From Deltaproteobacteria bacterium (GTDB lineage Bacteria; Desulfobacterota; JAJRXV01), in NCBI GenBank assembly GCA_024275075.1, contig JAJRZU010000157.1:1-23566 (forward strand): 23,566 bases of DNA, written 5' to 3'. Position 1 is the stretch's first letter; each line of letters starts with the position of its first letter. The translations under genes and the position numbers were made by a program. This document shows, in pieces, positions 1,682 through 20,167 of the stretch. Below the pieces are notes generated by a model. The model ran no database searches. It saw only the letters and a program-made list of their open reading frames with translations, and was not told the origin of the DNA.

Positions 1682-2149
1682 ATGAATATTAGAGATCTAT
1701 TAAACGAAGAAAACATAATTGTAGACTTAAAGGCAACGCTAAAAACGGATGTCTTAAAGGAGCTGGCTACTAAATTAGTCTTGGCGAACCCTGATATTGA
1801 TCTGAATCTCTTGACCGAAAAATTAATCGAGCGGGAGAATCTGAGCAGTACCGGTATTGGGGAGGGTATCGCTATACCGCACTGTAAGTATCAGAACCTC
1901 GGGGGGATACTTATGTCGTTTGGAAGAAGCCTGGCGGGCGTTGATTTCGATTCCATTGACAAAAGGCCGGCAAAGATATTCTTCTTGCTGGTCGCGCCGG
2001 ACACACCAAAGGCGGCCGGTGAGCACTTGCGCACATTAGCGAAAATCACGAGGATATTAAAAAGCAGTGACTTTAGAGATGCCTTGATGTCTGTGGCGAC
2101 CGAGAAGGAAATCTATAAGATGATCGCGATAGAAGATGAGAAATTTTAG
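1682..2149 (+). CDS. ptsN: PTS EIIA-Ntr nitrogen regulatory protein (fructose/mannitol-type EIIA domain)
   Basis: 155 aa with the GIAIPHC active-site His motif of PTS EIIA type 2. It occupies the standard position between hpf and hprK/rapZ. Stop is TAG. Confidence 0.8.
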   Translation: MNIRDLLNEENIIVDLKATLKTDVLKELATKLVLANPDIDLNLLTEKLIERENLSSTGIGEGIAIPHCKYQNLGGILMSFGRSLAGVDFDSIDKRPAKIFFLLVAPDTPKAAGEHLRTLAKITRILKSSDFRDALMSVATEKEIYKMIAIEDEKF

Positions 2150-2173
2150 GCTAAAGTCAGGAAAGCAAGGTTG

Positions 2174-3121
2174 ATGAATTCCATTTCGGTAGAGGAATTA
2201 CTAAAAGAGAAGGGTAAAGATTTTCATTTACAACTCACCGAAGCGGATAAAGGTCTGACCAACAAAATATCCACGCCAAGGATCCAGAAACTTGGCATAG
2301 CCTTAACCGGTTATACCAAATTCCTGCGCCCTAACCGCATACAGATAATCGGGAACACGGAATTATCATACCTTAAGACGCTTGCTCCGCCAGAAAGAAA
2401 GGAGCGGATAAAAAAGGTCTGCGGCAAAGAAGATATCGCCGCGTTTGTCATCACGAAGAATCTGCGGATCCCGAAATTTCTACTCCAGCAGGCGAAGAGC
2501 CAGAAGATACCGGTGCTCAGGACATCTGCGGATACTGCCGCATTCATTACTATCATTACAAGGTATTTAGAAGATGTGCTCTCGCCTTCTACCGTCATAC
2601 ATGGTGTTTTACTTGAGATATTTGGTGTCGGGACGCTTCTGATCGGCAAATCCGGTATCGGTAAAAGTGAGAGCGCGTTAGACCTAGTGCTAAAGGGACA
2701 TCGGCTCGTTGCTGACGATATTGTAAATATAAAGAAGAGGGCGCAGACAGTCCTTCTCGGGGCGGGCGCGGAGCTGATCAAGCATCACATGGAGGTTCGC
2801 GTGCTGGGCATCATCAACATCAAGGACCTGTTCGGCAGCGCTTCTGTCAAGGATATCCAGAAGATAGAGCTTGTCATATATTTATCTGAATGGGATAATA
2901 TGAAAGAATACGACAGGCTTGGTATCGATGAGGAGCAGTATAATATCCTTGATGTTAAGATGCCATTATTGAATATTCCTGTTACGCCAGGCAGGAATAT
3001 GACGACGATCATAGAGGTGGCGTGCAGAAACTTCCTGCTCAAGCAGATGGGTTGCAACTCTGCGCTAAACTTCCATAATGAACTACTGAAGCGGATTCAG
3101 GAAAAAACACTGCATGAATAG
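2174..3121 (+). CDS. hprK: HPr kinase/phosphorylase
   Basis: P-loop GKSGIGKSE. The HprK C-terminal catalytic-domain motifs (LIGKSGIGKSE...ADD, HHMEVRV.GI) are conserved. Length is about 315 aa. The ORF table starts at TTG 2171 and the first ATG is at 2174. Confidence 0.85.
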   Translation: MNSISVEELLKEKGKDFHLQLTEADKGLTNKISTPRIQKLGIALTGYTKFLRPNRIQIIGNTELSYLKTLAPPERKERIKKVCGKEDIAAFVITKNLRIPKFLLQQAKSQKIPVLRTSADTAAFITIITRYLEDVLSPSTVIHGVLLEIFGVGTLLIGKSGIGKSESALDLVLKGHRLVADDIVNIKKRAQTVLLGAGAELIKHHMEVRVLGIINIKDLFGSASVKDIQKIELVIYLSEWDNMKEYDRLGIDEEQYNILDVKMPLLNIPVTPGRNMTTIIEVACRNFLLKQMGCNSALNFHNELLKRIQEKTLHE

Positions 3122-3992
3122 CATTAATATTGTCATAGTAACAGGTCTTTCGGGCTCGGGGAAGTCCACTGTTCTAAAAGTCCTTGAGGATTTAGGGTTC
3201 TTTTGCGTCGATAACCTGCCTGTAGTTTTATTCAATAAATTCCTTGAGTTATGTACGCAGACCACCGGTAACCTGAACAAAGTCGCAATCGGTATGGATA
3301 TCAGAGAGAGGGATTTCTTCAAAGATTACCCCTTGACTTTTAAGGAGTTAAGGGAGGCCGGCTATGATTTTGAGCTGATGTTTTTAGACTGTTCCAGCGA
3401 TGTCATTCTAAGGCGGTTCAGCGAAACGCGCCGCAAACACCCGTTAGAAGGCGGGGGCTCTGTACTTGACAGCATATCAAGGGAAAGACTCAAATTAGCG
3501 GAACTAAAGGATATTGCTACAAAAATAATAGATACGACAAAAATAAACGTTCACGAGCTGAAAAACGAGGTGCGAAAATACTACTCGGATTATTCATCAC
3601 TGCACGCGATGAAGATCACATTGGTATCGTTCGGTTACAAAAATGGCGTACCGACCCCGGCGGATATTGTTATTGATGTGAGGTTCATGACCAATCCATT
3701 CTTTGTCCCTGAGTTAAAGCACCTGACCGGTCTGGATCAAGAGATACGCGATTTCTTGTTTAAAGACAATGATATCGCAAATAGTTTTATCGATAAGTTC
3801 CTCGATTTCCTGAGCTTTTTGATACCGCTGTATGAAAAAGAGGGGAAAAAGTACCTGACGATCGCTATTGGTTGCACAGGTGGCCAGCACCGGTCCGTAG
3901 CTGTTGTGAACAACATATCATCATTGCTGAAAAAAGATTATGAAGAAATAATTGTCACACATAAAGATTTGATTTATAATAAGGAAAAATGA
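3114..3992 (+). CDS. rapZ: RNase adapter protein RapZ (YhbJ/YvcJ family P-loop NTPase)
   Basis: N-terminal Walker A VTGLSGSGKST and the C-terminal domain of the YhbJ family. It overlaps the hprK stop, and ATGA overlaps the next gene. Confidence 0.85.
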   Translation: MNSINIVIVTGLSGSGKSTVLKVLEDLGFFCVDNLPVVLFNKFLELCTQTTGNLNKVAIGMDIRERDFFKDYPLTFKELREAGYDFELMFLDCSSDVILRRFSETRRKHPLEGGGSVLDSISRERLKLAELKDIATKIIDTTKINVHELKNEVRKYYSDYSSLHAMKITLVSFGYKNGVPTPADIVIDVRFMTNPFFVPELKHLTGLDQEIRDFLFKDNDIANSFIDKFLDFLSFLIPLYEKEGKKYLTIAIGCTGGQHRSVAVVNNISSLLKKDYEEIIVTHKDLIYNKEK

Positions 3993-4309
3993 AAGGGAAC
4001 TCGCTTATGGTAGGTATCGTAATCGTAACTCACGGGGAGCTCGCCCACCACCTATTAGAGACGGCAAAAGGCATTGTGGGCGAAGCCAGGCAGGTTGCGA
4101 CGCTCTCTGTCTCTGCTAATAAAGAGATTGCAAAGATAAGGAGTGATCTTTCTGACGCGATTCAAAATGTCGATACGGGTGACGGGGTGTTGATACTGAC
4201 CGATATGTTCGGGGGGACGCCGTCAAACATCAGCCTCTCTTTCTTGAACGAGAAGGAGGTTGAGGTTGTGACAGGGGTCAACCTGCCGATGCTTATAAAG
4301 CTCCTATAG
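3989..4309 (+). CDS. PTS mannose/fructose/sorbose-family EIIA component, interrupted by an in-frame TAG at 4307-4309 (the open part is 106 aa)
   Basis: MVGIVIVTHGELAHH contains the EIIA-Man phosphorylatable His. The ORF stops at TAG 4307-4309. The same frame continues for 41 more codons that resemble the EIIA-Man C-terminus, reaching TGA 4433-4435. See the next feature. Confidence 0.75.
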   Translation: MKGNSLMVGIVIVTHGELAHHLLETAKGIVGEARQVATLSVSANKEIAKIRSDLSDAIQNVDTGDGVLILTDMFGGTPSNISLSFLNEKEVEVVTGVNLPMLIKLL

Positions 4310-4435
4310 ATGCAAGAGAAGAACGAGCTATACTCGCTGGCAAAGAAGATAGAGGTATATGGCAAGAATAACATATACTTAGCAAGTGAAATTCTAAAGA
4401 GCAGGATCGATGTTTCAAAGGGTGGGGAAAATTGA
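4310..4435 (+). other. C-terminal 41 codons of the EIIA-Man gene, in the same frame directly after the internal TAG
   Basis: 4310-4432 encodes MQEKNELYSLAKKIEVYGKNNIYLASEILKSRIDVSKGGEN. It is in frame with 3989 and ends at TGA 4433-4435. That stop overlaps the TTG start of the EIIB gene at 4432, so the ATTGA junction is coupled. The combined length of 147 aa matches a normal EIIA-Man. Confidence 0.6.
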
Positions 4436-4929
4436 GTATTGTCCTTGCAAGAGTTGACAACAGGTTAGTCCATGGGCAGGTGCTTGAGACGTGGGTGCCT
4501 TTCACCAAGGCCAACAGTATTATTGTGCTCAATGACGATGTCTACAATAACCAGTTGCAAAGAGGTATCATACAGTCATGCGTACCGTCATATATTGAAG
4601 TGCTGATCAAAAGAATAGAGGATGTACCGTCGCTTCTTGATTACATATACAGCTCAAATATTAGGTGCATTATACTCTTTTTCAATATTCACGATGCGCT
4701 TGCAGCCTATAAAAGCGGGTTGGCGTTTAATAAACTGAATTTAGGTAATATACATTGCCATACCGGCAGGCGGCAGGTGACCCGTACGATCTACCTGAAC
4801 AATGAGGATATAGAAGGATTAAAGGTGCTTGAGGGGATGAGCATCAAGATAGAGATAAAAACCGTACCACAGGAGAAGGGGGCGGATTTCTTCAAAAAAG
4901 TCGCGAAGATATCCTCATGGGCAAAATGA
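4432..4929 (+). CDS. PTS mannose-family EIIB component
   Basis: LARVDNRLVHGQV is the EIIB-Man/sorbose phospho-His motif. TTG start. Stop is TGA, and it overlaps the EIIC start (ATGGGCAAAATGA). Confidence 0.8.
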   Translation: MSIVLARVDNRLVHGQVLETWVPFTKANSIIVLNDDVYNNQLQRGIIQSCVPSYIEVLIKRIEDVPSLLDYIYSSNIRCIILFFNIHDALAAYKSGLAFNKLNLGNIHCHTGRRQVTRTIYLNNEDIEGLKVLEGMSIKIEIKTVPQEKGADFFKKVAKISSWAK

Positions 4930-5615
4930 TTGATATACTTACTGTAAGTTTATTAGGCGCTCTTTTGTCGCTGGACAGAACGGCGGTGCTGCAATCCATG
5001 ATAGCAAGGCCGATTGTGACAGCCCCACTAATAGGACTCTTGTTAGGGGATGTCTACACCGGGATTGTCATCGGTGCGGCGCTCGAGCTCTTGTGGATAT
5101 CGTTACTGCCGCTTGGCGCATATATACCGCCTGACGAGAATCTGGCGGCGGTTCTGACCACTTCTTGCACGATAATCGGTATGAGGAGCATAAACGTTGA
5201 GCTTCATAACGCGTTCATTGTGTTGAACATATTGTTTTTTATACCTTTCGCCTATTTTGGGAGGACGGTTGACAAATATGTCAGGATCATTAACAACAGG
5301 CTCTCAAATATCGCTGAAAGAGAGTGTGATAATTTTAATTTCACAAAAGTCGAGGCGATGAACATTGCAGGGATGCTGGTATTCTACGCATTGAATTTTA
5401 TTACGATATTTATTCTCTTGTCGATGACTGTAAACATAACGCCGGCTATTTACAATGTGTTGCCGGTATTCTTTACCGATGGACTTGAGATTGCCTATCC
5501 GGTATTCCTGATAGTCGGTGCGGCGGCGGCGCTCTGGGGCAATAAAACGAAAAACTCGTTCATCACTTTTACTGTATCGTTTTTATTGTTTTCGATTATC
5601 CTTGAATTATTATAG
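4917..5615 (+). CDS. PTS mannose-family EIIC membrane component
   Basis: 232 aa multi-pass membrane protein. GDVYTGIVIGAALELLWIS is typical of ManY/AgaW-like EIIC. Stop is TAG. Confidence 0.75.
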   Translation: MGKMIDILTVSLLGALLSLDRTAVLQSMIARPIVTAPLIGLLLGDVYTGIVIGAALELLWISLLPLGAYIPPDENLAAVLTTSCTIIGMRSINVELHNAFIVLNILFFIPFAYFGRTVDKYVRIINNRLSNIAERECDNFNFTKVEAMNIAGMLVFYALNFITIFILLSMTVNITPAIYNVLPVFFTDGLEIAYPVFLIVGAAAALWGNKTKNSFITFTVSFLLFSIILELL

Positions 5616-5625
5616 CAGGTGGAAA

Positions 5626-6423
5626 ATGGTTGTCATTGTAAAAAAGAAGATGAGCTTATTGTTGCTGATGAGGGTACTCGTAAGGAGTCTCTTTATCCAG
5701 TCCGGCTGGAATTTCAAGAAGATGCAGAACCTCGGATTCGCGTTCAGCATCATACCGGCGCTCAAGAGGATATATGGCGATAAGAGCGAGGAGTTGCAGG
5801 CGGCGGTAAAAAGGCACCTTATCTTCTACAATTCTCATCCGTACCTCTCGGCGCCTATATTAGGCGCCACGATCAGCCTTGAGGAGGAGTATAAACTAAC
5901 GGGCGCCGGTATGGAGAACATAAATATCTTCAAGAACAGCATGATGGGTATATGCGGCGGGGTAGGGGACACTTTCTTTTGGGGCGTTGCAAGACCCGTT
6001 GCAGGTTTGTTAGGCGTTATATTGGCGCTCACGGCATATAACATATACGCACCGGTTGCATGTCTCGTATTATATAACATCGTTCATCTGACTTTCAGGG
6101 CGGCTACTTTTTTTTCCAGCTACAAAAACGGGACAGCAGTGACTAAGACAATAATGAAGATCAATCTGAGGACGCAGACGCAAAGACTCAAGAAGCTGGA
6201 GATAGTGTTACTCGGTGCGCTTTTGGCGTTGATAAAAAATAAATTTGTCATTTGCAACTTTGATGTGGTAACTTATAATTTTATCGCGATTTTATTGTTT
6301 ATTTTGATTTTTTTCATTTTATACTTTTTAATTAACAAAAATATTAGTCCGGCGCTGATTGTATATATAGCGGTAACTGCTGTAATATTAATTAGTTATA
6401 TATATAATTCATCGCTCGCTTAA
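5626..6423 (+). CDS. PTS mannose-family EIID membrane component
   Basis: SGWNFKKMQNLGFAFSIIPALKRIY...HLIFYNSHPY...APILGATISLEE aligns along its length with ManZ-type EIID. An RBS (caggtgg) precedes ATG 5626. The ORF table start at 5518 is an upstream in-frame extension that overlaps EIIC. The AT-rich 3' end encodes extra TM helices. Confidence 0.8.
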   Translation: MVVIVKKKMSLLLLMRVLVRSLFIQSGWNFKKMQNLGFAFSIIPALKRIYGDKSEELQAAVKRHLIFYNSHPYLSAPILGATISLEEEYKLTGAGMENINIFKNSMMGICGGVGDTFFWGVARPVAGLLGVILALTAYNIYAPVACLVLYNIVHLTFRAATFFSSYKNGTAVTKTIMKINLRTQTQRLKKLEIVLLGALLALIKNKFVICNFDVVTYNFIAILLFILIFFILYFLINKNISPALIVYIAVTAVILISYIYNSSLA

Positions 6424-6435
6424 CAAGGGAGTTAT

Positions 6436-6708
6436 ATGGAATACGCAGAGATTTTTGAGATTAAGAACAAATTAGGGCTTCATGCGAAGGCAGCGGGGCT
6501 TTTTGTGCAGACGACAAACAAGTTCACCGCCGATTTTTACGTGAAAAAAGATGACATAGAGGTGAACGGTAAGAGCATTATGGGGCTTATGATGTTAGCG
6601 GCCGCGAAAGGGAGCAGGATTTTAGTCAGAGCCAGCGGCAGTGATGCGAAAGAGGGTTTAACTGAGATAAGAGAGCTTATTTTAAGAAAATTCGATGAGG
6701 AAGAATAG
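6436..6708 (+). CDS. ptsH: phosphocarrier protein HPr
   Basis: 90 aa with His15 in GLHAKAA and Ser46 in NGKSIMGLM, the HprK target. Ends with tandem stops TAG TAA. Confidence 0.85.
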   Translation: MEYAEIFEIKNKLGLHAKAAGLFVQTTNKFTADFYVKKDDIEVNGKSIMGLMMLAAAKGSRILVRASGSDAKEGLTEIRELILRKFDEEE

Positions 6709-6713
6709 TAAAT

Positions 6714-8489
6714 ATGAAACATGGAAATAAAATGTATAAGTTGCAGGGTATCGCTGTTTCCCCGGGGATTGTTACCGGTAAGGCGTACCTTTTGGACAGG
6801 AAAAGGGTAAGGCACATTGAAAAGCCGATAAAGGTGGAGAGTGTCGAGCATGAGACCCAAAGGTTCTTAGAGGCGGTTGAGAATTCAAAGAATCAGTTGA
6901 TATCCATTAAAGACAAAATAGCAGGCAGTAAAAGCAAAAAGCCGATCGGGCACGGGCATCTTTATATTATTGATATTCACCTGATGTTCTTAGAAGATAA
7001 GATGCTCATTGACGAAACGATAAATACGATCAGGAAGAAAGAGATAAACGCTGAATGGGCGCTGCGGCTGGTCGTAAAAAACATCCAAAAGGTATTTGAT
7101 AATATCGAAGACGAGTACTTCAAGGAAAGAAGTAGTGATATCATGCACATATCCGAGAGGATTATGAGGAATCTTGTCGGTAAGGAGGAGCAGAGCATTA
7201 TTGAGATCGATGAGGAGATCATAATAATCGCTCACGACCTCTCGCCGGCTGACACTGCACAGATGGCGCTTAACAAGGTAAAGGGGTTCCTCACCGATAT
7301 CGGTAGCAAGACCTCGCATACGGCGATTATGGCGCGCTCTTTGAAAATCCCCGCGATTGTCGGTTTAGAGCGTATAACTGACGTCATAAATGGCGGTGAC
7401 ATAATCATCATCGACGGGATCAGCGGGACGGTGATCATAAATCCGAACGCTGCCACGATAAAAGAGTATGACCAGAAGAAGCTAAACTACGATGAGTATG
7501 AGAAAAAGCTTTTTGTATACAAGAAATTGCCCGCTGTCACGAAGGACGGCAGGAGGATAATCCTAAGCGCAAATATTGAGCTGATTGACGAGATACCGAC
7601 TACCATTGAATATGGCGCCGAGGGGATCGGGTTATATAGAACAGAATTTCTGTATATGAACCGCAAGAATCTCCCTACCGAGGAGGAGCATTTTGAGGTG
7701 TACAAGAACCTCGTTGACGGCATCTCGCCATACCCGATCACAATAAGAACGCTTGACTTAGGCGGTGACAAGTTCATCTCCCAGATACAGCTGGCTGACG
7801 AGATGAACCCGGCAATGGGGCTAAGGGCAATCCGGTTCTGCCTCAAAGAGAAACAGATTTTCAAGACCCAGCTTCGGGCAATACTGCGCGCCAGCCATTA
7901 CGGTGAAATAAAGGTGATGTTCCCGATGATCTCTGGTATCCCTGAGATACGCGAGGCGAAGGGCATATTAGAAGAGGTGAAAACATCCCTTAAGCACGAC
8001 AAGACACCATTTGACGAAAATATTCAGGTCGGTATCATGGTGGAGATTCCCTCGGCCGTGACAATCGCGGATCTACTCGCAAAGGAGGTCGGGTTCTTCA
8101 GCATCGGGACTAACGATCTCATCCAGTACTCTCTGGCTATCGACAGGGTCAACGAACATGTCGCCTACCTGTACGAGCCATTGCATCCGGCTCTGCTCCG
8201 CACGATCAAGCACATCGTGGATACCGCCCATAATGCCGGTATCTCTGTCAGCATGTGCGGCGAGATGGCTGGTGAGCAGGAGTATATTCTCGTTCTACTG
8301 GCGCTCGGGCTCGACCAGCTCAGTATGAACTCGATGTCAATCCCGCGTGTTAAGAAGATCCTGCGCTCATCAAAGTACCATGACGCCAACGAAATTCTAA
8401 ATAACTGCTTCAAGATGTCTACCACCTACGAGATCGAAAAATATGTCCGACAGGAAATGCACACGATGTTCCCCGACGATTTTTCGTAG
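6714..8489 (+). CDS. ptsI: phosphoenolpyruvate-protein phosphotransferase (PTS Enzyme I)
   Basis: 591 aa. The N-terminal region IAVSPGIVTGKAYLL and the phospho-His domain (TSHTAIMARSLKIPAIVG), PEP-binding domain and C-terminal TIM-barrel motifs (GTNDLIQYSLAIDR, SMCGEMAG) are conserved. Confidence 0.9.
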   Translation: MKHGNKMYKLQGIAVSPGIVTGKAYLLDRKRVRHIEKPIKVESVEHETQRFLEAVENSKNQLISIKDKIAGSKSKKPIGHGHLYIIDIHLMFLEDKMLIDETINTIRKKEINAEWALRLVVKNIQKVFDNIEDEYFKERSSDIMHISERIMRNLVGKEEQSIIEIDEEIIIIAHDLSPADTAQMALNKVKGFLTDIGSKTSHTAIMARSLKIPAIVGLERITDVINGGDIIIIDGISGTVIINPNAATIKEYDQKKLNYDEYEKKLFVYKKLPAVTKDGRRIILSANIELIDEIPTTIEYGAEGIGLYRTEFLYMNRKNLPTEEEHFEVYKNLVDGISPYPITIRTLDLGGDKFISQIQLADEMNPAMGLRAIRFCLKEKQIFKTQLRAILRASHYGEIKVMFPMISGIPEIREAKGILEEVKTSLKHDKTPFDENIQVGIMVEIPSAVTIADLLAKEVGFFSIGTNDLIQYSLAIDRVNEHVAYLYEPLHPALLRTIKHIVDTAHNAGISVSMCGEMAGEQEYILVLLALGLDQLSMNSMSIPRVKKILRSSKYHDANEILNNCFKMSTTYEIEKYVRQEMHTMFPDDFS

Positions 8490-9963: not shown

Positions 9964-10242
9964 TCACCCTTTCGCGGTCACTTTCTTCATAAAATCGGTG
10001 AACTCCACTTTGAACCTATCCGCTGAAAACCGCCTGGCATTCTCGATAATATCCTCGCACGCGAACCCGCCCTGCCCTGCTTCGAATCTCTTGACCGCGT
10101 CAACAAGGCTCTCGATCGTCTGGGAGTCAAAGAATATGCCCGTCTTACCGCTTATGACCGTCTCGGTGGCGCCACCCTTCCCGAACGCGATGACGGGTGT
10201 TCCACACGCCTGCGCCTCAACGGGTACGATACCGAAATCCTC
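9964..10242 (-). other. C-terminal 92 codons of the same GT4 gene, in the same frame directly after the internal TAA
   Basis: The - strand translation [41 protein letters not shown]... is the conserved GT4 catalytic C-terminus (EX7E motif). It is in frame with 10243..11076 and ends at TGA 9964-9966, 10 nt before the aminotransferase start. Confidence 0.65.
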
Positions 10243-11076
10243 TTACGCGGCGAATATGAACGCTTTCGCCCGCAGCATATAGTCACTCAAGGCATCGGCG
10301 CTCTGGTATCCCATGAGCTTGACATTCTTGCCCGCCTTCGCTTTCACCTTCTTTATGTCAGGCCCGTCACCAATGACGACGAGCTCCTTGTCTGGCATCG
10401 TCGAAAAAGCTTCCACTATCAAGTCCATCTTCTTATACGGTACCATCCGTGACGCAGCGAGGTAGAAACCAGCTTTCTCCGTATCAAGGACAGTAGCTGA
10501 ATCCATAATATTAACAGGTGGATATATAACGGTCGCGTCTTTGTTGTAGATCTTCTTGATCCTGCCTGCGGTATATTTTGAGTTCGCGATATAGTGATCG
10601 ACCCTGTTTGCGGTAGTAGCGTCCCAAATCCGCACATAATGCAGGATCGCCTTCGCCATCATCGCTTTTATGCCTCTGGTCAACCCCGCCTCCCTGAGAT
10701 ACTGGTGATACAAATCCCACGCGTAGCGCATCGGTGTGTGGCAGTAGCAGACGTGCGTCTGGTTGGAGCTGACAAGCGCGCCCTTCGCGACCGCGTGAGA
10801 TGACGAGATGACCAGATCGTACCCGGACAGGTCGAACTGTTCGATAGCAAACGGCATCAGCGGCAGGTATGACCGGTACTTGCGCTTCGCAAAGGGCATC
10901 TTCTGCAAAAACGAGGTGTTAGTCGCCTTATCAAGGATAAATCCACGCCCACCCTCTGGCAGGAAATCGACAAGGCAGAATATATCCGCCTCGGGATAGA
11001 GAGAAACTATCTGCTCCAATACCCGCTCGGAACCGGCGTATGTCACGAGCCAGTCATGTACAATTGCAGTCTTCAT
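10243..11076 (-). CDS. GT4-family glycosyltransferase, N-terminal 277 aa up to an in-frame TAA at 10243-10245
   Basis: MKTAIVHDWL...GSERV is a typical GT4/GT-B N-terminal domain. The ORF stops inside the conserved EX7E region (..[26 protein letters not shown]..). Confidence 0.75.
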   Translation of the reverse strand: MKTAIVHDWLVTYAGSERVLEQIVSLYPEADIFCLVDFLPEGGRGFILDKATNTSFLQKMPFAKRKYRSYLPLMPFAIEQFDLSGYDLVISSSHAVAKGALVSSNQTHVCYCHTPMRYAWDLYHQYLREAGLTRGIKAMMAKAILHYVRIWDATTANRVDHYIANSKYTAGRIKKIYNKDATVIYPPVNIMDSATVLDTEKAGFYLAASRMVPYKKMDLIVEAFSTMPDKELVVIGDGPDIKKVKAKAGKNVKLMGYQSADALSDYMLRAKAFIFAA

Positions 11077-12458: not shown

Positions 12459-12731
12459 TTAAATATTAGCATTTATGCAACAGAAAGCGGGTAGTAGGCT
12501 GGGCAGGTTTTTTTGCCCATCAACATCAACAAAGGTGACATAGCCCTCGGGCGGTTCGTCGGTGTTATCAGTGTCTCCTTCACCTTCTTCGCCGCCACCT
12601 GTATCTGCTTCGTACATGCTCTCATGGTCGCCGAACCCGTCACCGTCCACGTCCGCGTAATATGTTACGGCTGCATCTTCTTCAGCAGTATCGGCAGTAG
12701 TCTCGCCGCTCGTGCTCTCAAGACAGCTCAT
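12459..12731 (-). CDS. possible small acidic protein with a DxDxDG calcium-binding-like motif (YYADVDGDGFGD); uncertain
   Basis: 90-codon ORF with coding-like GNN periodicity and pI about 3. The RBS is poor and the 3' end overlaps an inverted repeat. It lies in an otherwise non-coding 560 bp between lpxC and tRNA-Arg. Confidence 0.25.
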   Translation of the reverse strand: MSCLESTSGETTADTAEEDAAVTYYADVDGDGFGDHESMYEADTGGGEEGEGDTDNTDEPPEGYVTFVDVDGQKNLPSLLPAFCCINANI

Positions 12732-12847: not shown

Positions 12848-12924
<77 letters not shown>

Positions 12925-17296: not shown

Positions 17297-17312
17297 CTAT
17301 ACCTCGCTTATA

Positions 17313-17516
17313 TTATTTAATACATTGAATAAAATAGTAAATCGATCTGTTAAACTTCTTCTCAGCCTCTTCGGGAAAGAAGCAGCCGGGTAACTCTTCC
17401 CGCCCCTTATGATAAGAGACACACTTGCAACAGTTGCCTCTGCGCGAGCAGCTTGTATAAGTGCATGTACACTCTTTTAAGGTCGATTCTTTGCCGCATT
17501 CCATGGTTTTATGCAC
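17313..17516 (-). CDS. small cysteine-rich protein (9 Cys in 67 aa), possibly metal-binding; hypothetical
   Basis: MHKTMECGKESTLKECTCTYTSCSRRGNCCKCVSYHKGREELPGCFFPEE. It sits 16 nt upstream of maf on the same strand. The alternative start at the second Met (MECGKE) gives 63 aa. Confidence 0.5.
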   Translation of the reverse strand: MHKTMECGKESTLKECTCTYTSCSRRGNCCKCVSYHKGREELPGCFFPEEAEKKFNRSIYYFIQCIK

Positions 17517-17750
17517 CCCCCAGAATAAAAAAATGTGGAATTATTATGACTTATATCTGAACATGATTAAATATTGTGCAAATATTTTTTACTTCGTTGT
17601 TATTACTACGTTATTTAGATTGCATATATTTTAAGCAAAATGCTGTTTTTCTCTATTTTATGCTGTTAAACCAGCCTCACTAACAATGAATTGCACATGT
17701 TATCAACAGTTTTTGTCAATAAATACTCATTATCGATACCGGTGTATTTC

Positions 17751-17766
17751 AACAGGCGCGCCTGTT
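17751..17766. other. perfect 16-bp GC-rich palindrome AACAGGCGCGCCTGTT (hairpin)
   Basis: It lies 50 nt 3' of the - strand gene ending at 17818. It is followed on the + strand by TTTTAT. It may act as a terminator or processing hairpin, or as a protein-binding site. Confidence 0.4.
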
Positions 17767-17817
17767 TTATCTCTGTGTTTGATTCCCCGCATCCCGCCAT
17801 TGAAAAAATCAGCGGAA

Positions 17818-18504: not shown

Positions 18505-19449
18505 TCAGTCACCTTTTTTCAGATATTTGAGCGCGTCACCAACGGTGAATAAAGAACCTGAGACAAAGATAATCGAGCCGTCCTCGTACAGGTCATACGC
18601 ACGATCCAACGCGCTTTTGACATCAGGTACACTTATCACATTCGCGTCGCTTTCAAAGCCGGTTAGCAGTTTATTCGGGTCCGCCGCGCGGTTTATCGCC
18701 GGTTTGGTCAGGATGACGGTATCAGACACGCCGCACACGCGCTTTAGTATGCCCGCGGTATCCTTGTCACTCATCACACCGATAACGCTTATGATCCTCT
18801 TACCCGCGAAGTTAGCCTTGAGCGTATCGATCGCGGTGCGCATCGACGCGTCATTATGCGCGCCATCTAATATAAGAAGCGGATCGTCAGAAAAGAGATC
18901 GAACCGCCCCGCCCACTTCACGTCGCCAAGCCCGCTTCGTATGCTCCACTCCCCCACCAAAAAGCCGCTACCCTCAATCAGTTCGGTCGCGGCTATCGCC
19001 AGTGAGAAGTTGTCAAACTGGTGCCCACCCATGAGGCTCTTCTTGATACCGCTGTACGATCTGTTGATACCGGTATAATCAAACGTATCCGCACCGATCT
19101 TCGTATACGTAAAATCGCGGTGGAGCTGGTACACCTTCGCGTCCATAGCATCCGCGGCAGCCTCGATGACTTCCCGCGCCCGCTCATCATTTACGCCTGA
19201 GATAACCTCCGCGCCCCTTTTTATGATACCCGCTTTCTCCTTCGCGATCTTTGCTATTGTGTCGCCAAGGTAGCGCTGGTGCTCCATCGATATGCTCGTC
19301 AAAACGCTCACTGTAGGCGTTACAACGTTTGTCGCGTCGAGCCGCCCCCCCATACCGGTCTCTATCACCGCGATATCCACTCCCTTTAACATGAAGTAAT
19401 AAAACGCTATTGCAGTAGTATACTCAAAAAAAGTTATCTCGCAATCCAA
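18505..19449 (-). CDS. folC: bifunctional folylpolyglutamate synthase / dihydrofolate synthase, C-terminal 314 aa (after an in-frame TAG at 19510-19512)
   Basis: ETGMGGRLDATNVV, AKEKAGIIK and ILDGAHNDAS are Mur-ligase/FolC motifs. It is in the same frame as the N-terminal fragment. Confidence 0.85.
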   Translation of the reverse strand: MDCEITFFEYTTAIAFYYFMLKGVDIAVIETGMGGRLDATNVVTPTVSVLTSISMEHQRYLGDTIAKIAKEKAGIIKRGAEVISGVNDERAREVIEAAADAMDAKVYQLHRDFTYTKIGADTFDYTGINRSYSGIKKSLMGGHQFDNFSLAIAATELIEGSGFLVGEWSIRSGLGDVKWAGRFDLFSDDPLLILDGAHNDASMRTAIDTLKANFAGKRIISVIGVMSDKDTAGILKRVCGVSDTVILTKPAINRAADPNKLLTGFESDANVISVPDVKSALDRAYDLYEDGSIIFVSGSLFTVGDALKYLKKGD

Positions 19450-19512
19450 ATTAAGCGCGGCTTTCTTCTCCCGAATGATTCGGGTAATGTCGATAACGCT
19501 CGCATCGTCGAT

Positions 19513-19779
19513 CTAGCCGCCGCCCGCGCGTATCCTCTCATTAAAATCGATAAGGTGGGGAGAAGTGTACAGACCGACTCTATAGCCGCTCTTTGTCAGC
19601 ATGGACTCTATCGCGGCGGCGGTAGACCCTTTCCCGTTAGTACCGGCGATGTGGATAGTCTTGTATTTTTCCTGCGGGGAAGAGAGGGCGGCGAGCAGCT
19701 TACGAATATTTGTGAGCCCGAGCTTGATACCGAATTTCTGCAGGTTGAAAAGATAATCGATCGTCTCTTTGTAATCCAT
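19513..19779 (-). CDS. folC: folC N-terminal fragment (ATP-binding P-loop region), ending at an in-frame TAG
   Basis: MDYKETIDYLFNLQKFGIKLGL...HIAGTNGKGSTAA...YTSPHLIDFNERIRAGGG* matches the FolC N-terminus, including the GTNGKGST P-loop. The ORF table starts at TTG 19815; ATG 19779 aligns better with FolC N-termini. Confidence 0.8.
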   Translation of the reverse strand: MDYKETIDYLFNLQKFGIKLGLTNIRKLLAALSSPQEKYKTIHIAGTNGKGSTAAAIESMLTKSGYRVGLYTSPHLIDFNERIRAGGG

Positions 19780-19820
19780 CAAATCATTTCTTTGCCGGTC
19801 GATGCTGATAAACAAAACAG

Positions 19821-19906: not shown

Positions 19907-20167
19907 CTATTCCCCTGGCTCAGGTTGCGGGGCATGGCAGCCATAGCACCTTGTCCTTTTTACATGAGTATCGGGTATCGGGTACTCGCCGCCCTTGAAA
20001 TGGCACTTCCCGCATTCTTTGTGCATATCCCTTTTGGTAGTCGCTTTCACGGCATTCAGGTGCGTCTCGTCTGCGGGATAGTAAGAGCCCTTCTTCTCAG
20101 GCGCCATAAGGAGTACCGTTAGTACCGCCGCCATCACCAAAACGAAGGCCACATGCTTCTTTAACAT
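19907..20167 (-). CDS. small dihaem c-type cytochrome (signal peptide plus two CXXCH motifs)
   Basis: 86 aa. Signal peptide is MLKKHVAFVLVMAAVLTVLLMA. Haem-binding motifs are CGKCH and CYGCH. Confidence 0.6.
   Translation of the reverse strand: MLKKHVAFVLVMAAVLTVLLMAPEKKGSYYPADETHLNAVKATTKRDMHKECGKCHFKGGEYPIPDTHVKRTRCYGCHAPQPEPGE

Follow-up and report, generated by a model that had tools for sequence, protein, structure and literature searches.

The mannose-family EIIA gene (EIIA-Man) in the window, a complete NCBI contig of 23566 bp, is interrupted by a single in-frame TAG at positions 4307-4309 of the + strand, and two unrelated housekeeping genes on the same contig carry the same type of lesion. 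The reading that we prefer, with a probability of about 0.5, is an unprogrammed point substitution present as a flaw of the consensus sequence. The TAG would then have arisen by a single-base change in a normal EIIA-Man gene, most simply Ser TCG>TAG, and the flaw itself may lie in base calling or assembly, or the assembler may have captured a minority or mutant allele. As one of three such substitutions on the 23.6-kb contig, it would belong to the sequence record and would not be a feature of the PTS.

The interrupted EIIA-Man gene and its PTS cluster

The TAG is found in the EIIA-Man ORF in the letters analysed (...AAG CTC CTA TAG ATG CAA GAG... on the + strand) and equally in the deposited public record of the contig. 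Past the TAG the same frame stays open for 41 codons (4310-4432) and ends at a TGA (4433-4435) that shares bases with the TTG start of EIIB at 4432 (A-TTG-A). The interruption consists of one stop codon and involves no frameshift. On the single in-frame stop, the open frame beyond it and the overlap at 4432-4435, the first-pass annotation of the stretch was correct. Its length for the protein, 106 + 41 = 147 aa, stands for the 41 codons only. Single-frame translation of 3989-4435 does give an N-terminal part of 106 residues, the stop and 41 codons, and ATG 3989 is an alternative upstream start that overlaps the rapZ stop. The likely start is ATG 4007, because all relatives begin with MVGIVIV and the public gene call on the contig (P0008, 100 aa) starts there. 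The corrected layout is a 5' part of 100 codons (4007..4306, +, beginning MVGIVIVTHG), the TAG as codon 101, and a 3' part of 41 codons plus TGA (4310..4435, +) that covers the C-terminal helix region, or 142 in total.

With X at the stop, Pfam PF03610 (EIIA-man) matched in one stretch across the interruption, at profile positions 1-115 of 116, with a score of 100.6 bits against a cut-off of 21.4; the gene has no uninterrupted ORF for the whole of this domain. The 41-residue tail was identical to the closest intact relative, P0001, at 31 of 35 residues (E = 3e-21), so the continuation past the TAG is homologous and is no chance open frame, as had been claimed for a conserved C-terminus. Judged from its sequence, 3989-4435 is one EIIA-Man gene broken by one codon. 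The phospho-acceptor His9 is present in the N-terminal T-H-G loop, where an alignment of 24 sequences, that of the window among them, shows no variation at T8 and H9 and almost none at G10. PF03610 and the THG phospho-His loop are shared with the IIA domain of E. coli ManX (PDB 1PDO/1VSQ) and with Thermoanaerobacter 3LFH, and the DMFGGTP loop is common to the window protein and known mannose-family EIIA-Man proteins. In contrast to these, the ORF in the window is cut by the TAG at the end of helix D, and the last ~40 residues fall outside the translated protein.

The cluster around the gene has the order rpoN (partial), hpf, ptsN, hprK, rapZ, EIIA-Man, EIIB, EIIC, EIID, HPr and EI. The three loci nearest to the window, L001 (from NCBI GCA_024276115.1), L082 and L083 (both from JGI metagenomes), share this order. 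Upstream of EIIA-Man and belonging to the same conserved cluster are ptsN (EIIA-Ntr), hprK and rapZ (1682..3992, +). Downstream, likewise on the + strand, are EIIB (PTSIIB_sorb, 4432..4929, TTG start; PF03830, 138.8 bits), EIIC (EII-Sor by Pfam, 4917..5615), EIID (EIID-AGA by Pfam, 5623..6423), the phosphorelay component HPr (6436-6708) and Enzyme I (EI, 6714-8489), which together with HPr completes the phosphorelay. The gene is thus a member of an operon with mannose-family IIB, IIC, IID, HPr and EI, and operons with sorbose-type IIB, IIC, IID, HPr and EI are also known for mannose-family EIIA-Man. The overlap of the EIIA stop with the EIIB start recurs in L001 and L083. A sigma-70-like site (TTGTCA, 17 nt, TATAAT; 11/12 consensus positions, a consensus match only) lies at 3952-3980 (+) in the 3'-terminal part of rapZ, a short way upstream of EIIA-Man, and could be a candidate internal promoter of the permease genes. 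Linkage of EIIA-Man to hprK and ptsN in an rpoN-associated neighbourhood resembles the regulatory PTS clusters of proteobacteria such as Brucella melitensis (PMC2937029). Unlike the HprK / EIIA-Man-like / NPr regulatory system of that species, which is without a permease (PMC2937029), the window has the full permease (IIB, IIC and IID) and, since the permease is complete, its PTS could transport a sugar.

In the AlphaFold model of P0001 (mean pLDDT 82.5), strands are predicted at 3-8, 30-34, 61-65 and 85-89, helix D at 93-101 and a C-terminal helix at 108-137. The position of the stop is residue 101, which alignment to the PDB places at LVELLT/SINV of 3LFH. If the stop is taken literally, the product would be a 100-residue fragment that keeps His9 and the four-stranded core through helix D and lacks the C-terminal helix/strand region of roughly 40 residues; in E. 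coli IIA-Man (1PDO), this region supplies a swapped strand of the dimer. With ribosomes terminating 123 nt short of the EIIB start, translational coupling into EIIB would be lost, and EIIB would then rely on its own GGGTGGGG site. These functional consequences of truncation are what we infer.

Age of the stop and two further in-frame stops

All 119 EIIA-Man relatives listed are full length (133-152 aa), and none of them ends at the site of the TAG, an ending that the first-pass annotation had named as counting against its own view; the only short entry is the window's own fragment. The alignment that it had proposed for reading the residue at the site gave Ser (7 sequences), Ala (1) and Thr (3) in the close clade, and Asp, Glu or Asn in more distant relatives. 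The corresponding codons are TCA in L001, TCT in L082 and GCG in L083. Because the closest relatives carry Ser, Ala or Thr here, TCG>TAG would be the simplest change behind the stop. The Met that follows the site is conserved in the relatives, and ATG 4310-4312, directly 3' of the TAG, is therefore ancestral and not newly evolved.

The best relatives were 82% (EIIA), 81% (EI) and 64% (FolC) identical to the window, and synonymous sites were saturated against every available relative (pS 0.77-1.07). The EIIA-Man tail nevertheless had a pN of only 0.14 against L001, where pairs of intact relatives gave 0.17-0.22; the tail is undecayed, and relaxed constraint downstream of the stop was not found. 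From the low pN of the tail and the saturated synonymous sites it follows that the stop postdates by far the divergence from every relative. It should then be very recent, or spurious, or ineffective as a stop, and the choice among a recent nonsense mutation, a base-call error and read-through, as the annotation had put it, was the right set of options. A lesion within a conserved domain, with intact orthologues elsewhere, is the profile of a nonsense pseudogene, and EIIA-Man has it. Exact look-ups of the window's RapZ, EIIA fragment and EI returned nothing on record. A contig scan, in which the generic TDMFGGTP motif dominated, recovered only distant EIIA-Man loci (45-57% identity), and a degenerate DNA pattern for PML[IV]KL[LI]xMQ[ED] gave 2 chance matches, in unrelated genes, among metagenome contigs.

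The contig was scanned for same-frame open segments split by one stop, and these were translated, which yielded two additional cases. The first-pass annotation had described an otherwise intact setting; this is true of the operon, and the two further interrupted genes on the contig had been missed. One is the GT4 glycosyltransferase gene (9964-11076, -), in which a TAA at 10243-10245 (context AKAFIFAA-stop-EDFGIVPVEA) lies directly before the E-x7-E motif and is spanned by Glycos_transf_1 (200-349). The residue at this site is Glu in 55 of 98 representative relatives and Asp (GAT) in the syntenic L082, and a single step, GAA>TAA, gives the stop; the 92 codons of the tail are intact, and no in-frame start was present among the codons just after the stop. 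The other is folC (18505-19815, -; probable start ATG 19779), with a TAG at 19513-19515 (context ...RIRAGGG-stop-IDDASV) that is spanned by Mur_ligase_M (56-276). The syntenic loci L084 and L085 have GAG and CAG, respectively, at this site and then the same ATC GAC GA, and the change from GAG or CAG (Glu/Gln) to TAG is again one step. The folC gene is normally essential.

Internal in-frame stops on the contig were TAG and TAA only, never TGA, and all three fall in variable alignment columns. By eye, a shared motif around the three stops, of the kind that a methylation- or context-specific error might leave, was unconvincing, as TAGAT occurs at two sites and is absent at the third. When the proteins of the window were searched by tblastn against five related loci, 48 alignments covering 20 genes were obtained, each a single near-full-length match, and no in-frame stop and no frameshift was seen in these 48 orthologue alignments. 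Three of the 20 genes so aligned are interrupted in the window (rough hypergeometric p = 0.02). The stops therefore characterise the contig or genome rather than the PTS operon or the clade; their cause is not PTS-specific, because two unrelated genes carry the same lesion type.

Several other features of the region around folC were recorded. The four codons before its stop, GCG GGC GGC GGC (AGGG), form a GC-rich triplet run that replaces VN(K/R)(E/Y) of L084/L085 with the length unchanged; a frameshift or compensated frameshift in this segment was rejected, as the alignment is equal in length and has no indel. An 86-aa ORF at 19907-20167 (-) with two CxxCH motifs, next to folC in L084 and L085 as well (66-70% identity), resembles a small dihaem cytochrome c. 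L084 (12077-12832) and L085 (3144-3884) have a Lactamase_B_3 gene of about 250 aa between maf and the hypothetical gene that lies downstream of folC; the window (17297-17817) is without this gene and keeps only a conserved 67-aa Cys-rich ORF (17313-17516, -).

Tests for read-through, recoding and decay

Among 24 genes of the window, TGA was the terminator of 9, TAA of 8 and TAG of 7 (TAG and TAA together 15/24), and the C-termini of the window genes agreed with those of orthologues. Several of the TAG/TAA gene ends have no nearby back-up stop; no sign of a guard against read-through was seen, and reading through such normal ends would be costly. The TAG of ptsN is in frame with hprK (2147-3121, +), and its read-through would create a PtsN-HprK fusion with 324 codons to the next stop; IIC would be extended by 56 codons past its TAG and IID by 95 codons past its TAA. 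Folding of the 93-94 nt at and after each stop, compared with shuffled sequences, revealed no stable structure (z = -0.94 for EIIA-Man, -0.42 and -0.61 for the others). Rfam and ARAGORN searches over the 23.6-kb window found tRNA-Arg(TCG) only and no suppressor tRNA. This tRNA gene, at 12848-12924 (-), was the only RNA gene found in the window; beside it is a very acidic 90-aa ORF (12459-12731, -) with a YYADVDGDGFGD motif and without a signal peptide. None of the relatives has a stop at the EIIA-Man site, so that the conserved stop looked for as a mark of recoding was not found.

Reassignment of the code was ruled out, since all three stop codons serve as normal terminators, and pyrrolysine was rejected because it leaves the TAA unexplained and TAG is abundant. 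To our knowledge, no bacterial reassignment of TAG or TAA has been described. Programmed recoding, whether by pyrrolysine at UAG or by amber or ochre suppressor tRNAs, likewise places in-frame UAG or UAA in functional-looking genes. It differs from the case of the window, where the stop is unconserved, UAG is undepleted as a terminator, no downstream element is present and no decoding machinery is visible within the window. Regulated read-through is thus unsupported. The proposal that a read-through stop controls the dosage of this PTS is not supported, given the unconserved stop, the missing structure (z = -0.9), the use of TAG to end 7 of 24 genes and the presence of the same lesion type in GT4 and folC.

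In four-taxon alignments of 11 cluster genes (2746 codons), 157 private amino-acid changes were counted in the window; the counts for the relatives were 183, 142 and 114. EI, FolC and EIIA have 294 columns that are conserved to at least 95% among more distant homologues, and there the window deviated 8 times; at the same columns, the relatives of the clade showed 1-8 deviations per protein, mostly at shared positions. General decay was not seen in the window, and a decaying genome would be expected to show a missense excess. A random substitution in these genes yields a stop in 4.1% of cases, and in 8.1% for G:C>T:A changes; three stops would thus be accompanied by a total of about 35-70 substitutions on the contig, of which about 25-55 would be missense. 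A matching missense excess was not seen in the private-change and conserved-column tests, both of which have low power. The lesions on the contig are substitutions only, with no frameshifts.

Base composition is uneven along the contig. GC per 1-kb window varies between 0.38 and 0.54, and the GT4, band-7, maf and folC genes are richer in GC than the PTS genes. Overall GC of the window is 45.4%, higher than in any of five related loci (36.6-43.8%). Genomes of multicellular magnetotactic consortia have 36.2-38.4% GC (PMC11239054), and an origin of the window from such a consortium, with within-consortium heterogeneity, was rejected on this difference.

Origin and meaning of the stops

Ordinary nonsense pseudogenes and the internal stops of draft genomes show what is seen here, namely one substituted base within a conserved domain, orthologues that are full length everywhere else and an undecayed tail. 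In kind, the EIIA-Man gene is an ordinary case of nonsense interruption in a well-known family. It stands out only by how densely clean in-frame stops occur on its contig, with 3 genes affected in 23.6 kb, again without frameshifts and without a visible missense excess. For a consensus flaw speak the non-conserved site, the undecayed tail, the two further in-domain stops on the contig, the lack of general decay, and the failure of RNA folding, the tRNA and Rfam scans and terminator usage to reveal a read-through device. Against it, the expected missense excess did not appear (in tests of low power), frameshifts of the kind produced by indel-type long-read error are lacking, and the implied error rate, about 0.2-0.3%, is unusually high for a short-read consensus. 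On balance, we infer an artefact rather than a true allele. A real and very recent nonsense allele, with EIIA-Man a fresh pseudogene and the GT4 and folC stops likewise real, is a tentative alternative at clearly lower odds, which could have originated under relaxed selection, in a bottleneck, in a polyploid whose intact copies mask the lesions, or because loss of function was selected for. All three changes replace G or C by T or A, as is usual under bacterial mutation bias, and the undecayed tails and the purely substitutional lesions without indels fit a recent origin. Three lesions in about 22 genes, folC included, are however far above ordinary pseudogene loads; they come with neither a missense excess nor a frameshift, and the relatives look like ordinary intact genomes.

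That the stops are decoded, a natural suppressor giving useful read-through so that the genes stay functional, we regard as improbable. An ochre-type tRNA with anticodon UUA, which would read both UAA and UAG, is a candidate decoder that would suit the confinement of the internal stops to TAG and TAA, their position in variable columns, the missing missense excess and the interruption of an essential gene such as folC. Such a suppressor would nevertheless have to act where 15 of 24 genes end at TAG or TAA, their C-termini matching those of the relatives, and where ptsN, IIC and IID would gain 324, 56 and 95 codons with no nearby back-up stops. The stops are moreover unconserved in any relative and have no RNA structure downstream, the one tRNA within the 23.6-kb window is tRNA-Arg(TCG), and we know of no bacterial precedent for TAG or TAA reassignment. 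A milder version, in which this uncultured Desulfobacterota lineage tolerates in-frame UAG and UAA by partial decoding, for example through an ochre-type suppressor tRNA, seems about as improbable; the stops would then have drifted into variable positions of EIIA-Man, GT4 and folC and would still terminate. Highly improbable, in our view, is a functional split gene, with termination at the TAG and restart at the adjacent ATG (UAGAUG), and no better odds attach to its further step, in which the 100-aa and 41-aa pieces would reassemble into a working EIIA and coupling to EIIB would be restored. The ATG directly 3' of the TAG and the separate helical element formed by the tail in the P0001 model would suit it, but the Met is ancestral, no Shine-Dalgarno-like sequence precedes ATG 4310, and no relative among the 119 listed is split. 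Nor do GT4 and folC have a start at their stops, the first start in folC being a TTG 21 codons downstream.

As it stands, the EIIA-Man stop is of little importance beyond flagging a quality problem or a pseudogene on one draft contig. In practice, the whole contig should be examined for similar lesions before an in-frame stop is made the basis of regulatory claims. If partial decoding were true, the contig would represent stop-codon reassignment at an early, still ambiguous stage in a free-living bacterium. Were the stops confirmed and a suppressor present, this would be a rare case of natural ambiguous UAG/UAA decoding in a bacterium.
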